Shown: positions 18,531 to 34,614 of the stretch, piece after piece
Layout of the letters: every line of letters begins with the position of its first letter
Position numbering within the stretch: position 1 is the first letter of the stretch
Assembly (NCBI GenBank): GCA_038045265.1
Contig: JBBSYL010000036.1
Coordinates: 1 to 57,328, forward strand
Origin: Nanobdellota archaeon
GTDB taxonomy: Archaea > Nanobdellota > Nanobdellia > Pacearchaeales > GW2011-AR1
Reading direction: 5' to 3'
Length of the DNA stretch: 57,328 bases
The notes under the pieces: generated by a model
What the model was told of the DNA's origin: nothing
The model's input: the letters and a program-made list of their open reading frames with translations, nothing else
Database searches by the model: none
Position numbers and translations under genes: made by a program

Positions 18531-18728
18531 TAAACAAATTATCAAACAATATTTATAATACTTTCCTATTCGTATAATTACCATTAAACGTCCTTTTGAA
18601 CAGAAATTATGTTTAATGTACGGCGCAAAGGGCGCTTCGCGCCCTAATATTATTGTGGCTATTTTCTTTTTGAAAAAACCCGCAAAATAAAACAACAAGC
18701 TTAAAACTCCTCCTTTTCATATAAAAAG

Positions 18729-27515: not shown

Positions 27516-27603
27516 GGCCTCGTAGCTCAGCCTGGCTAGAGCACTGGACTCTTAAAATCTTGTAGAAATCCAGGTGTCGCGGGTTCAAATCCCGTCGGGG
27601 CCA
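27516..27603 (+). tRNA. tRNA-Lys(CUU) with a 13-nt intron; integration target (attL) of the DGR island
   Basis: Acceptor GGCCTCG/CGGGGCC, D arm GCTC/GAGC, anticodon stem CTGGA/TCCAG, loop CTCTTAA, T arm GCGGG-TTCAAAT-CCCGT, discriminator A. Confidence 0.85.
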
Positions 27604-27605
27604 TT
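27589..27605 (+). repeat. attL core (tRNA-Lys 3' end)
   Basis: 17/17 identity with 34598-34614. Confidence 0.8.
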
Positions 27606-27619
27606 GTTCAAAACCGCAC

Positions 27620-27630
27620 GCTTTAAATAG
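27620..27630 (+). promoter_or_regulatory. TATA-box-like promoter element upstream of integrase
   Basis: gctttaaatag lies ~30 nt upstream of the ATG at 27652. Confidence 0.4.
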
Positions 27631-27651
27631 TTCCAATTCGGGCAGGAAACT

Positions 27652-28818
27652 ATGAATGAAAAGATAGACATTCACTTTGAAGATGTGGGAAGAAGGAAAG
27701 AATCCATTAAAAAATGGAAAATGCCTTCAGAAGTAAAGAGAGATATGCTTCTTTTCCTTAATGATTTAGAATTAGGAAAGGTAAACAAGGGAAAGAAAAT
27801 AAATCCTAGAACTCAATTAAAATATATCAACACGTTAAAAGCTCCTCTTGAATACATAAACAAACCTCTTACTAAAATAACCCTTAAAGACTTAGAAGAG
27901 TTTGAAAAGGATTTATCTTCTGGTATATTGAAAAGCAAAAAGAAAAAGCCATATTCTCATGCCGTAAAGGCAGACATTAGAATTGCATTAAGAATACTAT
28001 TAAGATGGAAATTGGGGCTAGAAAAGGCAAATAAGCTTACTGATTGGTTTGATTGCAGAGATATTGACACAACACCAGACTATTTGAGTGAGAAAGAGAT
28101 AGAGAAGTTGTATAAGAGTTGTAAAAGCCTTAAAGAGAGATTTCTTATTGCTGTTCTATTTGACGCAGGTGTAAGAATTGAGGAATTTCTCAATATAAGA
28201 TACGAAGATGTTTCCTTACCTGTAAAAGAAGCTAATTTCGTTAAAATTACAATAAAGAATGAATATAGTAAGACATTAGGAAGAAATATATCTCTTTATT
28301 GGAAGCACTCATCAGAGGCAGTAAGAGACTTTATAGAACAAAGAGTTAGAGAAGGGATAAGAACAGACAATGCAGTCTATGAAGACACTTATTCTGCAAT
28401 TCGTTCATTCTTGAGAAGGTTTGGAATTAGAGTATTAAACAAGCCAGTGCATCCTCATTTATTTAGACATAGCTCTGCAACATATTATGCAAATAAACTC
28501 AATAGGCAAGAGCTATGCATGAGATATGGATGGAAGTTTAGCTCTGATATGCCTGACATCTATATTAGTAGAGCAGGAATGGAAAATAAAGAACTTGATG
28601 AGAAATTTACTCAAACTGAATTAGGAGATTTGAAATATAAACTTGAAAAGCAAGAACAACAAAATAATCTTATGAAAGAAAGACAAGAAAGACTTGAGGA
28701 AGAGTTGAATAGAAGAAGAAAATTTGACCCATTCTTAGACAAGCTAATGCAACAACAACCAGTAATACATCAAATAAAGAAGCTATTAGACAATGGAAAG
28801 AAATTAGTGATAGAATAA
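27652..28818 (+). CDS. int: tyrosine recombinase / integrase
   Basis: DAGVRIEEFLNIRYEDV (Arg I box), HPHLFRHSSATYYA (H-x-x-R) and DIYISRAG (candidate catalytic Tyr). It is intact and lies next to the att site. Confidence 0.9.
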   Translation: MNEKIDIHFEDVGRRKESIKKWKMPSEVKRDMLLFLNDLELGKVNKGKKINPRTQLKYINTLKAPLEYINKPLTKITLKDLEEFEKDLSSGILKSKKKKPYSHAVKADIRIALRILLRWKLGLEKANKLTDWFDCRDIDTTPDYLSEKEIEKLYKSCKSLKERFLIAVLFDAGVRIEEFLNIRYEDVSLPVKEANFVKITIKNEYSKTLGRNISLYWKHSSEAVRDFIEQRVREGIRTDNAVYEDTYSAIRSFLRRFGIRVLNKPVHPHLFRHSSATYYANKLNRQELCMRYGWKFSSDMPDIYISRAGMENKELDEKFTQTELGDLKYKLEKQEQQNNLMKERQERLEEELNRRRKFDPFLDKLMQQQPVIHQIKKLLDNGKKLVIE

Positions 28819-28844
28819 ACATAAAGTGGTGATTGGAGAACAAA

Positions 28845-29567
28845 ATGCCAATCAAACAAAAACAAAAGAAATCGAGCAACCGAAGCTCAATCCAGAGGAT
28901 GAGCTTTCGGGAAAGAATTGATTATGAAGAAGATAAAAAGAATAGATACTATAAAAGAACAGGAAAACAACAAAGAGTAAGAATAAATCTTGATTATGCC
29001 ATGGGATTTTTCAAAGCTAATGAATTAAATGTGCATGAAAAGGCATATTTGCTCAACAAAAAATATCAAATTATATATCGAACTGATTTAACAGGCAAGA
29101 AAAATTACTTCTTAGTGAAGCCGAGAGGAAATGAATCGGCAGAACATTTCCTTCTCGTAAAATTAATAGAAGAATATCTAAAACCTCATTTTAAAGTCTG
29201 GCTCTATCACTCTGTGAAGCCAGACGCGGAGATAAAATTCAAGAATAGAATGATTGCTATGGAAATTGAAACTGGAAAGCTTTTGAGGAACAATAAAAAA
29301 GAATTTCTTGAAAAAGTGGAGAGACTTAATGATAATTATGGGAAAGATTGGTTTTTCATTGTCACAAATAGAAATCTATTAAAGAAATATAGAAAATATG
29401 GTAAAACATACACAAGAAAGTCTGTATTGAAGAGATTAAATTATTACATAAATAATAAACCTAAAGAAAGTATAAGCATGAATTATGAAAACAAACCTAT
29501 AAAACGTGAAAATAAGCTTCCAGAAAGGAAAACTGGTGCTTATTGCTTTAATATTTGGGGAAAATAA
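28845..29567 (+). CDS. hypothetical basic protein of the island
   Basis: An ORF from the ATG at 28845, with a Lys/Arg-rich N-terminus. ..SAEHFLLV..KPDAEIKF..IAMEIETGK is loosely reminiscent of a PD-(D/E)xK nuclease core, but this is not secure. Confidence 0.45.
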   Translation: MPIKQKQKKSSNRSSIQRMSFRERIDYEEDKKNRYYKRTGKQQRVRINLDYAMGFFKANELNVHEKAYLLNKKYQIIYRTDLTGKKNYFLVKPRGNESAEHFLLVKLIEEYLKPHFKVWLYHSVKPDAEIKFKNRMIAMEIETGKLLRNNKKEFLEKVERLNDNYGKDWFFIVTNRNLLKKYRKYGKTYTRKSVLKRLNYYINNKPKESISMNYENKPIKRENKLPERKTGAYCFNIWGK

Positions 29568-29720
29568 GTATGCAAAAAACTAAGTTAGTATGTCAATTTT
29601 CACACAAAAAATCAACATACGAAATGCTCAATTTATTACACATAGATAAAAATCGTCTCCGACGATAGAATTTCCGATACGGTCAGCACAGGAATATAGA
29701 TATCTATTAAAATGTGTATT

Positions 29721-30768
29721 TTACACCTTTTCTAAAAGAGCATCAATTATCTTCATTTTAACTGCTTCCCTTAACTTATACGTCTTAGCCCATTTAGCAT
29801 AAGCCTGCCAACCTTGATAAACCTCCATTATAGATTCAAAACTCTTTTCGCCCTTTTTGTATAATTCTATTTTATTAATCATACTTCTTATATTTCTCTT
29901 TCTCAATAATCTACAATGGTAAAAATTCCTAAATCCAACAAAATCAATGCCTCTTTTTATTGGAATAATTCTTGACTTATTAGGATGTAATTCTATTTTT
30001 AACTTTTCTTTTAGAAAAGTATCTATTTTATCCTTCCATTCTTGAAGCTGTTTAGCAGACTTATGTAAAATTACAAAGTCATCAACATATCTTATGTAAT
30101 ACTTTGCTTTCAGGGTGTGCTTGACAAAATAATCCAGCTCATTCAAATATACATTAGCAAAGAATTGAGAGGTATAGTTGCCTAAAGGCATTCCTTTTGC
30201 TCGTTCGCCCCCCCCCCCCGAACGAGCTTACTGTATTATTCAATATTTGTCTGATAAGCCAAATCACGTCATTATCTTTAATCTTCTTACTTAGAATATT
30301 TATTAAAATTTCATGGTCAACGCTAGGAAAATAGTGTCTTACATCTGCCTTAAGGCAAAAACCACTTTCAGTATAAGGATTTGAAACTTTTCTTATAAAC
30401 CTATCAAATCTCTTAAGTGCAAACAATGTTCCTTTTTTTATTTGATTTGCACATGAATCATATATAAACTGCTTTTCAAAGAACTTCTTTATGACATTAA
30501 TTATAGCATGATGAACTACTCTATCTCTGAAATCAGATTTGCTTATCACTCTTGTTTTTGGGTCTCTCAAAACAAAGGTTTCCAAAGGCAAGGGCTTGTA
30601 TGTTTTATAAGTTAGTTCTCTATGCAGATTTAATAAATTAAGCTCTAAATTTTTCTCAAATTCCATAACGTCTTCATTTGAAGTTTTACCTTCTCTTGCT
30701 TTTCTCCAAGCAAGAGTTAAGTTTCCCATTGAAGATAGCCAATAATAAAGACCATTGTAAGTTTTCAT
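29721..30768 (-). CDS. DGR reverse transcriptase, reading frame interrupted by a G12 tract (one G fewer gives an intact 348-aa protein)
   Basis: The start MKTYNGLYYWLSSMGNLTLAWRKAREGK.., DPKTRVISKSDFRDRVVHHAI, the DGR-type motif 4 GMPLGNYTSQFFANVYL (xGxxxSQ), and YIRYVDDFVIL (YxDD). The two ORF-track pieces (30154-30873 and 29721-30191) join at the homopolymer. The total of 1048 nt equals 3n+1. Confidence 0.9.
30199..30227 (-). repeat. homopolymer G12 (sense strand; C12 on + at 30208-30219) flanked by a perfect 8-9 bp inverted repeat inside the RT gene
   Basis: The sense strand reads GCTCGTTC-G12-CGAACGAGC. This is the frameshift site of the RT. Confidence 0.9.
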
Positions 30769-30797
30769 ATTATAATTCCTAGTATGCACGTACTGGG

Positions 30798-30881
30798 CTA
30801 TTCGACCGTTCTCGTTAGAGTTAGCAAGATTGTCATTATTGGCATTCAAGTTGAGGTTACTATTGAGGTACAACCTCGAAA
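30798..30881 (-). repeat. DGR template repeat (TR), 84 bp
   Basis: It is homologous to 32150-32233 and 31269-31352. It has 28 A on the sense strand, mostly in AAY codons. It lies 29 nt upstream of the RT start and is not coding; the ORF-track TTG-start extension of the RT ORF covers it. Confidence 0.9.
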
Positions 30882-31242
30882 GGTATAGCCTTCTGCTTTA
30901 CGTACTCACATTCACATCTGTAAATTTCATCTCATTATTGCAGATGTAAATGCTCGTCACCACCACTTCATATTTCATTTTTCAATTACTTAATGTCGCA
31001 GTTGAATTTTATAATCTTCTCTTACGAGAAGACCCTAAGCACAAGGCGTGTAGCCCAGCCATGATTTGTGCATGACTAGGACTGTTAAAAGAAAATAATG
31101 CTTTTTATTTAATTAGATTATAGAATATGCAATAATCAAACAATATAGATAAAAAAATAGATTATATTATCAATTTGATTTTAAAGTTCGCATTTTATAA
31201 TTTTTCATTTTTAATTATTATGTACCAAAAAATTTGACGCAA

Positions 31243-31257
31243 AGTGGCTTCGGCACT
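31243..31257 (-). promoter_or_regulatory. GC-rich hairpin 11 nt downstream of VR2 (sense AGTGCCGAAGCCACT, one C-C mismatch)
   Basis: It is near-identical to the hairpin downstream of VR1 and absent downstream of the TR. Confidence 0.55.
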
Positions 31258-32001
31258 TTAGAAGAGAACTACCCGACCGTCCTCGACAGAGTAAGCAAGA
31301 CCGACATTATCGGCATACAAGTCGAGGCTACTACTGAGGCACAACCTCGAAAGTCCAAGATTATCTTCATTAGCTTCTCCCTGCGATGCAGTCCATAATG
31401 TTCTTGTTCCTTGTCCGAGCTTAGAAGGCAAACCAGTTTCTAATGAAACATCTTCATTTCTAAATACTCCTGTTGGTTTAGCAAGAATTGGAGAATGTCT
31501 TACTTGAGTATTTGGATTATAAACTAATCCTAAACCATAACTTCCTTTATCAAAATTCTTTAAACCATATTTGACAAGAACTGCTGGAAGCTTTTTAACA
31601 TCTCTTAATTGAGCAGGTAATTGTCCAAACATATCCATAGCCATTTCATGATGTCTTCCTGAAAAGTCTAATACAACTCCTAAATCAACATAATGATTTC
31701 CTCGTATTCCTATTGTATCTCCATCATTAAGAGTTCTTTGAATATCTTCTGGAAGTCCAACTCTTCTTTCTGGAACTAATGATTGAACTACTGGTAAAAC
31801 TAAAGAATTTGAACCTCTGACTGTAGGAACTTTATTAACTTCTGCTAAGTTTAAAACTTTAAGATTGGGATTATCAGCATAATCTCTTTTAACCAAGGCA
31901 TTAAAATCTTCTACAAATCTTGGAGCATTATCTCCTTGAAGAGTGTAAGGTATTACAAATGGCTGTTTTACTGCTGGCTTAAAATCATATTTATCTGTCA
32001 T
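31258..32001 (-). CDS. DGR target protein 2 (VR at extreme C-terminus)
   Basis: A paralog of the upstream gene. The C-terminus ..LSRLCLSSSLDLYADNVGLAYSVEDGRVVLF is encoded by VR2. It starts 2 nt after the stop of target 1. Confidence 0.85.
   Translation of the reverse strand: MTDKYDFKPAVKQPFVIPYTLQGDNAPRFVEDFNALVKRDYADNPNLKVLNLAEVNKVPTVRGSNSLVLPVVQSLVPERRVGLPEDIQRTLNDGDTIGIRGNHYVDLGVVLDFSGRHHEMAMDMFGQLPAQLRDVKKLPAVLVKYGLKNFDKGSYGLGLVYNPNTQVRHSPILAKPTGVFRNEDVSLETGLPSKLGQGTRTLWTASQGEANEDNLGLSRLCLSSSLDLYADNVGLAYSVEDGRVVLF
31269..31352 (-). repeat. DGR variable repeat VR2
   Basis: There are 15 differences from the TR over 84 bp, all at TR adenines on the sense strand. Confidence 0.9.
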
Positions 32002-32003
32002 AA

Positions 32004-32888
32004 TTATTTCCCTCTCCCTGTAGGCATATTAACCATAGATTGTGTAAACCATTTATCGAGTTCGCTTTTTCTTGCTTCTACTTGTTCTCTTAATTGAGCT
32101 TGATATTGTCTAATAAAATCGGCGCCAGTGGCTTCGCCACTAACCAAAACTACCCGACCGTCCTCGTTAGAGTTAGCAAGATTGTCATCATTGGCACTCA
32201 AGTTGAGGTCACTAACGAGGTACAACCCCGAAATTCCATTATCTCTTGCAAAAAATTGTCTTTTTCCATTTTTATCAAATTTAGGTAATCCTAATTCATC
32301 AACATCTGTAAACTGTTTTTCATTATTCTTTCCAGAAAGTCTTTCATCCTGTGCAACTGCAAAATCAGGTCTTGCTACAACCTTTAATCCATATCCTGCT
32401 CTGTCTTCTTCAGAAGGCACGACATCAAATCCTTGCACCATGAATGGATATTTTATACTTCCAGCCTTACTTTCTGCTAATTCAGTAACTTGTTTTAATA
32501 TTCCTCTATTCTGTTCTCTATTGTCTTTGTTACTTTGAACAACAAATGCAGGAGTATCAGAATAATGATTATCTTTAACCATAGAAAGAACTTGAGGGTT
32601 GCTTAAATCAGCCAATGTAACAACACGCATATTGAAAGGTCTTACCATATTATCCAAACGAGATGCTGAAAATGTATTTGAACCAGTCATATATGCAGGA
32701 TTATCTTTTCCAGCTTGAACCAGTGTGAGAACATTAAGGTATTGATTATCTCCAAATCTTTCTTTAATATCTCTTCTAAATGCTTCATACAATGCAGGAG
32801 CAAATTTATCTCCTTCTGCGAATGCTGTTAAAATAGTTGGCACTCTCCAATTAGGTTGCCCAAGATTTAGTTTACTTTCTTTAGCCAT
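32004..32888 (-). CDS. DGR target protein 1 (internal VR followed by ~47-aa tail)
   Basis: ..GISGLYLVSDLNLSANDDNLANSNEDGRVVLVSG.. is encoded by VR1. There is no signal peptide or TM helix. Confidence 0.85.
   Translation of the reverse strand: MAKESKLNLGQPNWRVPTILTAFAEGDKFAPALYEAFRRDIKERFGDNQYLNVLTLVQAGKDNPAYMTGSNTFSASRLDNMVRPFNMRVVTLADLSNPQVLSMVKDNHYSDTPAFVVQSNKDNREQNRGILKQVTELAESKAGSIKYPFMVQGFDVVPSEEDRAGYGLKVVARPDFAVAQDERLSGKNNEKQFTDVDELGLPKFDKNGKRQFFARDNGISGLYLVSDLNLSANDDNLANSNEDGRVVLVSGEATGADFIRQYQAQLREQVEARKSELDKWFTQSMVNMPTGRGK
32127..32141 (-). promoter_or_regulatory. GC-rich hairpin 8 nt downstream of VR1 (sense AGTGGC-GAA-GCCACT, 6-bp stem)
   Basis: A perfect inverted repeat just 3' of the IMH-like end of VR1. 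It lies within the coding sequence of target 1. Confidence 0.6.
32150..32233 (-). repeat. DGR variable repeat VR1
   Basis: There are 9 differences from the TR over 84 bp, all at TR adenines on the sense strand. Confidence 0.9.
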
Positions 32889-32907
32889 GCCCTTTCTTAT
32901 TTTAGAC

Positions 32908-32919
32908 TATTTATAAACC
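32908..32919 (-). promoter_or_regulatory. TATA-box-like promoter element of the DGR target operon
   Basis: The minus-strand gGTTTATAAATAg starts 30 nt upstream of the ATG at 32888. Confidence 0.45.
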
Positions 32920-33217
32920 TTTCTATTATGTTACTACTTCAAAGTTAATTATGTAATATGGGACGAATATTCTTTATTGATATAAAAGAAAGAAAAGTTT
33001 GTAAATGTAAGTAAGAATATTATGCTATTTTGTACTAAAACTTACAGAATCTGTATAGAATGATACAAAATAGCTAAGTTTACAGATTACTGAAAGACGA
33101 TTATGTCATTCAAACCATAATATTATGGTATAAACACTATAATGAAAAGTGTCACAAATAATGTATCACTTTAGAAAGGTTTAATTCTGTTATAGTGTGC
33201 TTTGCTGATGCACAACA

Positions 33218-33261
33218 TCTTCTATCCTCAATAGAAGATAGTTTCTATTGTCAATAGAAAC
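33218..33261. promoter_or_regulatory. two adjacent 8-bp-arm palindromes (candidate operators) abutting the ATPase promoter
   Basis: TCTTCTAT-cctca-ATAGAAGA (33218-33238) and GTTTCTAT-tgtca-ATAGAAAC (33241-33261), directly followed by cctttaaatat. Confidence 0.5.
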
Positions 33262-33282
33262 CTTTAAATATATGTTTTATAT

Positions 33283-34503
33283 ATGATTAGCATGGTAGAA
33301 GAAGAAATAATAAAAGAAGTTATAACTTCACAGAGAGAATTATTGAATAAATCAGAAACTGGAACTCCGAGAGAGGCAGAAAAAGAGATTAGTATATTAG
33401 ATTCGTTTGCCCTAATAATAACTGGCGTGAGACGATGTGGCAAGAGTACATTTTTAAATCAGCTAATAAAAAAGCAGAAAAAAGCTTATTATCTTAATTT
33501 TGAAGACCCTCGACTAGAAGGATTTGAATTAGCAGATTTTAATAAAACTGAAATAATTTTTAAAAAGCTTTTTGGAGAAGGAGGAGTTTATTTTTTTGAT
33601 GAAATACAAAATATAGCTAAATGGGAAAAATTCATAAGGTACTTGGTTGATAAAAAGGAGAAAGTAGTTATAAGTGGCTCAAATGCCTCTATTTTGAGCA
33701 GAGAACTAGGGACAAAACTTACGGGAAGACATCTTAGAGCAGAAATGTTTCCTTTTTCCTTCAAGGAGTTTTTAGACTTAGAAAATGCCGAACCATCAAT
33801 AAATAGCTTTGATAAATATTGCCAGAAGGGAGGATTCCCAGAATATCTAAAGAAAGACAATCCAACGATATTAAATGAATTATTATCTGATATTGTAATG
33901 AAGGATATTGCAATAAGATTTGGAATAAAAAATACCAAAATATTAAATAAAATAGCAATCTTCCTCATAGGTAGCTCTGGAAAAGAGTTTTCTTATAATT
34001 CAATAAAGAATATGCTAAACATTAAATCTGTACAAAGTGTAATAAACTATATATCATTTTTTGAAGATGCCTATCTTATCTTTACTATTCCTCTCTTTAA
34101 CTATTCATACAAAAAACAGCAAGTAAATCCTAAAAAAGTTTACTCGATAGATACGGGCTTTTCTGTCTACAATACTCCCTCCTTTTCAGAAGATAAGGGG
34201 AGAATTCTAGAGAACGTTGTATTCCTTGCCTTGAGGAGAAAACATAAAGATATATTTTATTTTAAAGAAAAAAATGAATGTGACTTTTTAATAAAGGAAA
34301 GGGAAAAAATTATTCAAGCTATCCAAGTCTGCTATAATTTTAATAATGACAATAAGGAAAGAGAAATTAATGGGTTGATGGAAGCAATGAAGAAGTTTAA
34401 ATTGAAAGAAGGTTTAATTCTAACGTATAATCAAACTGATGAGTTTAATGTAGAAGGATATAAAATTAAAGCTATTCCTGTCTGGAAATGGCTTCTCTTA
34501 TGA
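33283..34503 (+). CDS. AAA-family ATPase (DUF4143-type archaeal ATPase)
   Basis: Walker A GVRRCGKST and Walker B VYFFDEIQ, with a C-terminal region like the DUF4143 family. The alternative start at 33292 fits the 30-nt TATA spacing better. Confidence 0.75.
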   Translation: MISMVEEEIIKEVITSQRELLNKSETGTPREAEKEISILDSFALIITGVRRCGKSTFLNQLIKKQKKAYYLNFEDPRLEGFELADFNKTEIIFKKLFGEGGVYFFDEIQNIAKWEKFIRYLVDKKEKVVISGSNASILSRELGTKLTGRHLRAEMFPFSFKEFLDLENAEPSINSFDKYCQKGGFPEYLKKDNPTILNELLSDIVMKDIAIRFGIKNTKILNKIAIFLIGSSGKEFSYNSIKNMLNIKSVQSVINYISFFEDAYLIFTIPLFNYSYKKQQVNPKKVYSIDTGFSVYNTPSFSEDKGRILENVVFLALRRKHKDIFYFKEKNECDFLIKEREKIIQAIQVCYNFNNDNKEREINGLMEAMKKFKLKEGLILTYNQTDEFNVEGYKIKAIPVWKWLLL

Positions 34504-34597
34504 ACGAAAGATTATTATACTAATGTGTATTAGAAATAATACGAAGAGGATTAGTGCCTTTATTCAAGATAAAGACAAGTGATGCGGTTCTGACTAC

Positions 34598-34614
34598 ATC
34601 CCGTCGGGGCCATT
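34598..34614 (+). repeat. attR core (copy of tRNA-Lys 3' end)
   Basis: 17/17 identity with 27589-27605. Confidence 0.8.

Follow-up and report, generated by a model that had tools for sequence, protein, structure and literature searches.

In diversity-generating retroelements (DGRs), cis-acting elements define which repeat is the donor (the template repeat, TR) and which the recipient (the variable repeat, VR), and it is a hallmark of these systems that differences between the two are confined to TR adenines. The target of the Bordetella phage BPP-1 is functional in either orientation relative to replication. According to passages on this system, an IMH (initiation of mutagenic homing) sequence and a hairpin or cruciform downstream of it are required for homing to be efficient, both together are enough to retarget it, and the TR has no hairpin (Guo et al., 2011, PMC3240598; PMC5758913); the structure of the stem matters and its sequence does not, while the loop is sequence-dependent and reads GRNA on the sense strand (PMC3240598). 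For the DUSEL4 Nanoarchaeota DGRs, the relevant passages of the original description report IMH sites that include TGGGGT where the TR counterpart, IMH*, has TGGAAT, and hairpins that all have GRA trinucleotide loops and each lie within the target gene (Paul et al., 2015, PMC4372165). In AvpA, the hairpin is located inside a 46-residue C-terminal extension, as stated in a passage of Handa et al. (2016, PMC5006420). Here we describe a DGR on the 57,328-nt contig JBBSYL010000036.1, the whole of which is referred to below as the window. Its host is a DPANN archaeon, as seen from intron-bearing tRNAs and from the relatives of the DGR reverse transcriptase (RT). In our view, the GG-containing 3' ends of its two VRs and the hairpins that follow them are very probably the recipient-site marks of a DPANN-archaeal DGR.

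The DGR is compact and is encoded on the minus strand, where two target genes are followed by an RT-16 RNA, the TR, a spacer of 29 nt and the RT. The TR and both VRs align without gaps across 84 nt, and every difference between them falls on a TR adenine (9 of 9 in VR1 and 15 of 15 in VR2, 24 in all), with no other mismatch in the 84 nt. With a DGR-clade RT beside the TR, adenine-only TR/VR differences and a VR-specific 3' end, the cassette is a DGR. No gene for Avd was found: the stretch from the target genes to the TR contains no open reading frame (ORF), and no Pfam family matches the 244-aa ORF next to the RT; Avd is not universal among DGRs, and its absence therefore does not exclude membership.

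The 3' ends of the repeats show where donor and recipient part. VR1 ends in GAGGACGGTCGGGTAG (32165..32150) and the identical 16-mer is found in VR2 (31284..31269), while the TR has GAGAACGGTCGAATAG (30813..30798, all on the minus strand), so that both VRs terminate in ...CGGGTAG and the TR in ...CGAATAG. Allowing up to two mismatches, GAGRACGGTCGRRTAG occurs three times in the window, against 0.03 occurrences expected. A comparison set was obtained from a species-level scan (one genome per species) with the repaired RT (see below) as query, which gave 80 RT loci, nearly all of them from Nanoarchaeota, Pacearchaeota and Woesearchaeota. SCGC AAA011-G17, among the genomes where archaeal DGRs were first described, is one of these. 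The 260 nt upstream of each RT were taken as the candidate TR region and repeats were sought per locus, resulting in 90 TR/VR hits; the set used throughout holds 84 distinct VRs and 62 TRs of RT-related DPANN cassettes from about 60 species-level genomes. In 85 of the 90 hits, an otherwise matching hexamer is followed by AAT[A/G] in the TR and by GGT[A/G] in the VR, and three of the five remaining hits still change AA to GG. When the 85 pairs are anchored on the switch, the TR has AA and the VR has GG at offsets 0 and +1 in all 85, the adenine at +3 is unchanged in 47 of 47, and from +4 on TR and VR are unrelated. Adenines 6–8 bases upstream of the switch, on the other hand, are changed in about half of the pairs, and the other TR adenines in the VR bodies are kept as A in 47% of cases and read as G in 32%, T in 18% and C in 3%.

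Judged from these alignments, GG versus AA is a fixed mark of recipient versus donor, placed just past the 3' limit of adenine mutagenesis, and the IMH analogue is tiny, since homology stops 4 nt past the first of the two Gs. The change of CGA to CGG within it is synonymous, and CGG is the rarest arginine codon in this genome (1.5%). A preliminary description of this DNA had counted three A-to-G differences shared by VR1 and VR2 as a mark of the IMH/IMH* kind. Two of them, the change of CG-AA to CG-GG, are indeed fixed in the family, while the third (GAGAAC to GAGGAC) varies freely in relatives: it falls in an AAC codon where they have A, G, T or C and which encodes a freely variable residue of the target protein family. 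That VR1 and VR2 are alike at this third position is a matter of chance or selection, outside the mark.

The second difference between recipients and donor is the hairpin. The hairpins AGTGGCGAAGCCACT after VR1 (32141..32127) and AGTGCCGAAGCCACT after VR2 (31257..31243) are the sole matches in the window to AGTGSCGAAGCCACT at up to two mismatches, with 0.07 expected, and they are separated from their VRs by 8 and 11 nt, respectively. The VR1 hairpin is read in frame as AGT GGC GAA GCC ACT, 148 nt before the stop codon of its ORF. The VR2 stem can be extended to AAAGTG.../...CACTTT (31241–31259), its C-C mismatch being offset by three extra A-T pairs. Related cassettes were surveyed over the 55 nt after each repeat and selected on the pentamer CGAAG alone, without use of the stem. 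CGAAG was present after 57 of 84 VRs, after 2 of 62 TRs and in 2.6% of background windows (random 55-mers), and a perfect GAA hairpin follows none of the 62 TRs. At the VR sites the four flanking positions (stem levels 2–5) are Watson-Crick paired in 82–88% of cases, as opposed to 24–30% at 642 other CGAAG sites of the same loci. An ungapped alignment was then examined for covariation with 500 column shuffles and slid-partner controls. Stem cells were paired in 84.7%, compared with 56.6% in the shuffles, none of which reached as high a value, and with 26–44% for slid partners; cells changed on both sides numbered 123 against 44.9 expected, and every stem level shows GC, CG, AU and UA. The stem sequences thus vary among loci, yet they covary.

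The loop is strand-specific, CGAAG being found 57 times and CTTCG 7 times, and most often lies 15 or 18 nt away from the GG. GNA loops make up 50 of the 66 best triloop hairpins, 44 of these GAA. Perfect hairpins of at least 5 bp with a CGAAG core are seen 42 times beside catalogued VR ends and 15 times elsewhere in 720 kb, and about half of these 15 follow further VR-like ends. Of the related hairpins, 43 are inside an ORF and 8 at or after a stop codon. A covariance model built from other genomes only, with the window left out, and run unfiltered on both strands of the window, ranks the VR1 site first (32102–32143, 23.8 bits, E 2e-4) and the VR2 site second (31214–31259, 22.9 bits, E 3e-4). 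Its third match is an orphan GC-rich hairpin on the minus strand between the PolB and RsmB genes, in the style AGGGCG-CGAAG (AGGGCGCGAAGCGCCCT, then TTGCGCCG), and local alignments of the sequence upstream of it score no better than shuffles for any VR- or TR-like sequence.

Folding energies are less telling. The region after VR1 reaches z-scores of −2.0 as DNA and −3.0 as RNA, and the TR is followed by a weak 4-bp A/T stem (−0.8 kcal/mol as DNA, z +0.33). The hairpin signal rests on conservation, folding energy alone being too weak to decide. Much of what the preliminary description had proposed for the hairpins is borne out by these data. The repeat and hairpin strings, their positions on the minus strand and the 8- and 11-nt spacers were exact; the VR1 hairpin is maintained inside coding sequence and the TR lacks one; homologous cassettes carry both the GG/AA switch and CGAAG hairpins, with covarying stems; and the hairpin is no scattered repeat of the window. 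In the folding comparison that it had suggested, VR1 gives a modest signal and VR2 is not distinctive.

Past the hairpin, most related VRs carry a third element, an A-tract followed by a T-tract after CGC, with the consensus (T)CGCAAAAAWTT. CGCAAA is found after 29 of 84 VRs, a 26-fold enrichment, and a relaxed form of the CGC-A/T-tract pattern after 59 of 84 VRs, 10 of 62 TRs and in 9% of the background. The motif is seen both in coding regions (28 of 35) and close to a stop codon (26 of 42), and it is kept in the hairpin-less cassettes L053, L059, L060, L073, L075 and L077. The covariance model aligns the window variants GGCGCCGATTTTATT (VR1) and TTGCGTCAAATTTTTT (VR2) to this motif, and the motif after VR1 is invariant in L084 and L081, whose target proteins are 82% and 60% identical to that of the window. 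In the same two relatives a stretch of about 33 nt in the C-terminal tail of target gene 1 (GAAGCAAGAAAAAGCGAACTCGATAAATGGTT, within 32004–32100) is almost invariant at the nucleotide level, with proteins merely 60–82% identical. In the searched passages of DGR papers, we found no description of the CGC-A/T-tract motif.

Table 1. Features of the DGR and of the element that carries it (positions in the window).
Feature	Position	Strand	Remarks
TR (template repeat)	30798-30881	-	No hairpin after it; IMH*-like end GGTCGAATAG 30798-30807; AA 30801-30802
VR1 (variable repeat, within target gene 1)	32150-32233	-	IMH-like end GGTCGGGTAG 32150-32159; family-fixed GG 32153-32154
VR2 (variable repeat, C-terminus of target gene 2)	31269-31352	-	IMH-like end 31269-31278; fixed GG 31272-31273
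Target gene 1	32004-32888	-	294 aa; VR1 internal, followed by a 49-aa helical tail
Target gene 2	31258-32001	-	247 aa; distant paralogue of target 1 (25% identity)
VR1 hairpin AGTGGC-GAA-GCCACT	32127-32141	-	6-bp stem, GAA triloop; contains d(GCGAAGC); codes S-G-E-A-T
VR2 hairpin AGTGCC-GAA-GCCACT	31243-31257	-	One C-C mismatch; starts on the base after the TAA stop
Post-hairpin motif after VR1, GGCGCCGATTTTATTAG	32110-32126	-	Window variant of the CGC-A/T-tract motif
Post-hairpin motif after VR2, TTGCGTCAAATTTTTTGG	31225-31242	-	Non-coding
RT-16 RNA (Rfam RF03019)	30880-31080	-	3' end directly at the TR's first base
DGR reverse transcriptase	29721-30768	-	Split by a frameshift in the G12 run 30208-30219
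Integrated element of about 7 kb carrying the DGR	27589-34614	.	17-nt perfect direct repeat at both ends

These observations suggest the following route. The TR would be transcribed jointly with the RT-16 RNA on its 5' side, the RT would copy the TR RNA into antisense cDNA with errors opposite adenines, and the cDNA would replace the VR in the two paralogous target genes. The flow from TR to VR would be one-way because the VRs carry ...CG-GG-T-A/G as a minimal IMH, in place of the ...CG-AA-T-A/G of the TR, together with the hairpin. The hairpin would be the second VR mark, a C-GAA-G triloop on the sense strand about 15–21 nt further on, followed by the CGC-A/T-tract motif. The melting temperature is 76.5 C for the mini-hairpins d(GCGAAGC) and d(GCGAAAGC) and 39 C for r(GCGAAAGC) (Hirao et al., PMC13037366). 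Given this much greater stability of d(GCGNAGC) in DNA form than in RNA form, the hairpin most likely works at the DNA level, either extruded or on a transiently single-stranded sense strand, the strand to which the cDNA must anneal. A simple lagging-strand model is disfavoured by the orientation independence of the BPP-1 target. Such a DNA hairpin would raise the efficiency of cDNA integration, like the GRNA-loop hairpin in BPP-1. By analogy with that phage, then, homing would be expected to need both GG and hairpin, and both to act at the DNA level.

Several points weigh against assigning the GG ends and hairpins this role. The function is carried over from a distant bacterial phage system with a different IMH and a different loop, and no Avd-like gene was found in the window. 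The VR2 hairpin is mismatched and thermodynamically undistinctive (z −0.8 as DNA and −0.6 as RNA), the orphan hairpin at 18603–18646 is matched by the covariance model (16.4 bits, E 0.035) with no VR beside it, and about a third of the related VRs have no clear GNA hairpin, so the hairpin is not obligatory in the clade. Two facts also bear on current activity: a frameshift interrupts the RT in this assembly, and three other assemblies have identical VRs.

Conservation after the VRs could in principle lie in the protein only, the palindrome being a codon by-product of a GRVV-LVSGEAT strand and linker. Indeed, the residues after the VR are kept as GRVVLVSGEAT in the target family, and the hairpin spacings of 15, 18 or 21 nt are codon steps. 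It is very unlikely, however, that this accounts for the element, because the VR2 hairpin comes after the stop codon, as do or nearly do the eight related hairpins mentioned above, and because unrelated target families have the same element. Moreover, relatives of the window's own target family read ...SGEAT... or ...SAEGT... (GGC-GAA-GCC or GCC-GAA-GGC), so that swaps between G-E-A and A-E-G alter the protein and keep the stem. The four glycine and alanine residues of the stretch with the VR1 hairpin are encoded by the rare GC-rich codons GGC and GCC (13% and 11% usage), and for the series GGC/GCC/GGC/GCC the joint probability under window codon usage is about 2e-4, and in the IMH the step from CGA to CGG is synonymous. 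A different question is whether the hairpin, alone or with the A/T tract, serves the target gene as a transcription terminator or mRNA-stability element and is not a DNA homing signal. The VR2 hairpin, which adjoins the stop codon on its 3' side and has a T6 run behind it, would suit this well, the sense-strand orientation of GAA fits an RNA element equally, and the VR1 region folds as RNA, as said above. We nevertheless regard an RNA role of this kind as very unlikely: the VR1 hairpin is 148 nt upstream of the stop codon and most related hairpins (43 of 51) are within ORFs, a terminator scan flags neither hairpin, and the C-GNA-G triloop is a stability motif specific to DNA (PMC13037366). In line with this, a passage of Wu et al. 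(PMC5758913) indicates that terminators follow the IMH in a minority of DGRs.

The likeness of the two VR ends might also stem from a recent duplication or gene conversion of the target genes, in which case it would play no part in directionality and the A-to-G changes common to both VRs, three in number, would be mutagenesis products passed on by inheritance. In favour of this, the resemblance of the VR1 and VR2 flanks continues for about 40 nt beyond the VR, no DGR substitution is commoner here than A-to-G, and the third shared G (GAG-G-AC) belongs to a position that varies in the ordinary way. Elsewhere, though, the target proteins share only 25% identity, so the roughly 40 nt of shared post-VR sequence are not simple shared ancestry; GG/AA is fixed in 85 of 85 pairs from about 60 species-level genomes with unrelated targets; and the stems covary and are not identical by descent. 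Duplication without a function is very unlikely. Finally, the recipient might be recognised in a way unlike that of BPP-1, by a three-part single-stranded DNA (ssDNA) signal consisting of the GG switch, the d(C-GNA-G) mini-hairpin at a set distance of some 15–21 nt and the CGC-A/T-tract, read on the sense strand and without Avd. The RT-16 RNA would replace the bacterial spacer structure, the hairpin might for example direct priming or dock the cDNA as at ssDNA initiation sites, and the slippage-prone G tract of the RT would be an on/off switch. We consider this combination unlikely, if less so than the alternatives above. We retain recipient-site marking by GG ends and hairpins as the most probable reading of this locus.

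The RT itself is split by a one-base frameshift in a run of 12 G residues. Both halves match Pfam RVT_1, and removal of one G (G11) yields an intact protein of 348 aa, the repaired RT used above, which is 52–72% identical to the RTs of the 80 DPANN loci that carry TR/VR pairs. In another assembly of the element (L085) the run is G11 and the RT is intact, at 348 aa; apart from this, 5.5 kb are 100% identical. The run is G12 in L086, and the contig of L087 stops inside it. One relative represented by three assemblies (L081–L083) has T9G7 at the site of the run and a split RT as well, with the opposite shift required. Among related RTs, 12 of 80 have G6–G10 at the homopolymer site and four have G10–G11 at about nt 410. 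The G tract might serve as an on/off switch through phase variation, or its length might reflect a sequencing error in the homopolymer. A programmed ribosomal frameshift as a conserved mechanism was rejected, as the window requires +1 and L081 requires −1.

RT-16, which Rfam (RF03019) lists as a motif of unknown function near RT genes, is matched over its full length with 84.7 bits against a gathering score of 50, and of the related DPANN DGR loci that were tested, 11 of 11 have it in the equal position. In this clade without Avd, it appears to form the 5' flank of the TR transcript. The spacer contains a conserved YAGGA 8–15 nt upstream of the start codon of the RT, for which a ribosome-binding site is the simplest explanation. 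In six related loci (L006, L020, L042, L060, L070 and L073), the TR has an extra A/U-rich hairpin of 18–35 nt (CUCG...CGAG) just before its 3' end that the VR does not have; in L073 most of this TR-internal hairpin is retained in one VR, and it is absent from the other. The pattern suggests occasional skipping of the TR-internal hairpin by the RT, or else RNA processing.

The target family has no Pfam match, and neither target protein has a sequence match in PDB. An AF2 model of the target (pLDDT 87) has no Foldseek match in PDB with E <0.4, and the top weak matches are mostly C-type lectin domains, with a TM of about 0.4 on the target. The cassette is bracketed by a 17-nt perfect direct repeat, ATCCCGTCGGGGCCATT, found at 27589–27605, the 3' end of a tRNA, and 7.0 kb away at 34598–34614. 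Between the copies are an integrase (27652–28818), the 244-aa ORF, the whole DGR and an AAA_14/DUF4143 ATPase. Since the repeats enclose both integrase and DGR, the DGR is apparently carried as cargo by a mobile element integrated at a tRNA.

In terms of known systems, the cited passages on Nanoarchaeota DGRs already contain GG/AA ends and hairpins, and the window is a further member of that group. The features and their presumed role being in print, the finding opens no new question by itself. What it adds is comparative support far broader than the original description of eight cassettes, drawn from 84 VRs in about 60 genomes and including stems that clearly covary. GG/AA plus the C-GNA-G hairpin make a usable signature to find VRs in DPANN genomes and would supply rules of design should an archaeal DGR be engineered one day. 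Possibly new are side points, namely the CGC-A/T-tract motif, the RT-16 RNA abutting the TR, the G11/G12 tract of the RT and carriage on a 7-kb tRNA-integrated element; the searched passages of PMC4372165 and PMC5006420 make no mention of the first two. Judged against these same passages, the locus resembles the Nanoarchaeota DGRs in having GGGT in the VR and GAAT in the TR, a GRA-loop hairpin, and a VR1 hairpin inside the target gene that is followed by a tail of about 46–49 aa, and its RT is 65% identical to that of SCGC AAA011-G17 (L004). It differs in reading TCGGGT/TCGAAT where TGGGGT/TGGAAT is published and in having the VR2 hairpin after a stop codon, and its target family has no sequence match to AvpA.

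The preliminary description had likened the locus to BPP-1. As far as the BPP-1 passages go, the likeness extends to a VR 3' end that differs from the TR, to a GC-rich inverted repeat a few nt downstream of the VR only, at distances (8 and 11 nt) inside the 4–34 bp range, and to a free stem sequence with a conserved loop that has G...A on the sense strand. It does not extend to the IMH, which in BPP-1 comprises (GC)14 and a 21-bp element with five differences and here is a 2-nt switch with no 14-bp run of G/C only, nor to the hairpin, where a stem of 7–10 bp with a 4-nt GRNA loop is replaced by a family stem of 5–7 bp (6 bp in VR1) with a 3-nt GAA loop. Further, Avd is missing here and the RT-16 RNA lies upstream of the TR. 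To our knowledge, no role in the recruitment of a primase or RNA polymerase is known for DGRs. Such recruitment is the function of the d(GCGNAGC) systems, where the mini-hairpins d(GCGNAGC) and d(GCGNNAGC) mark sites of priming or polymerase entry on ssDNA, as in the G4 origin, ssiA and the N4 promoters (PMC13037366). The VR1 hairpin holds GCGAAGC exactly and the family loops are GNA closed by C-G, while VR2 departs from the motif with CCGAAGC and its C-C mismatch next to the closing pair. The d(GCGNAGC) identity links the GRNA tetraloops of bacterial DGRs with the GRA triloops of the archaeal ones.

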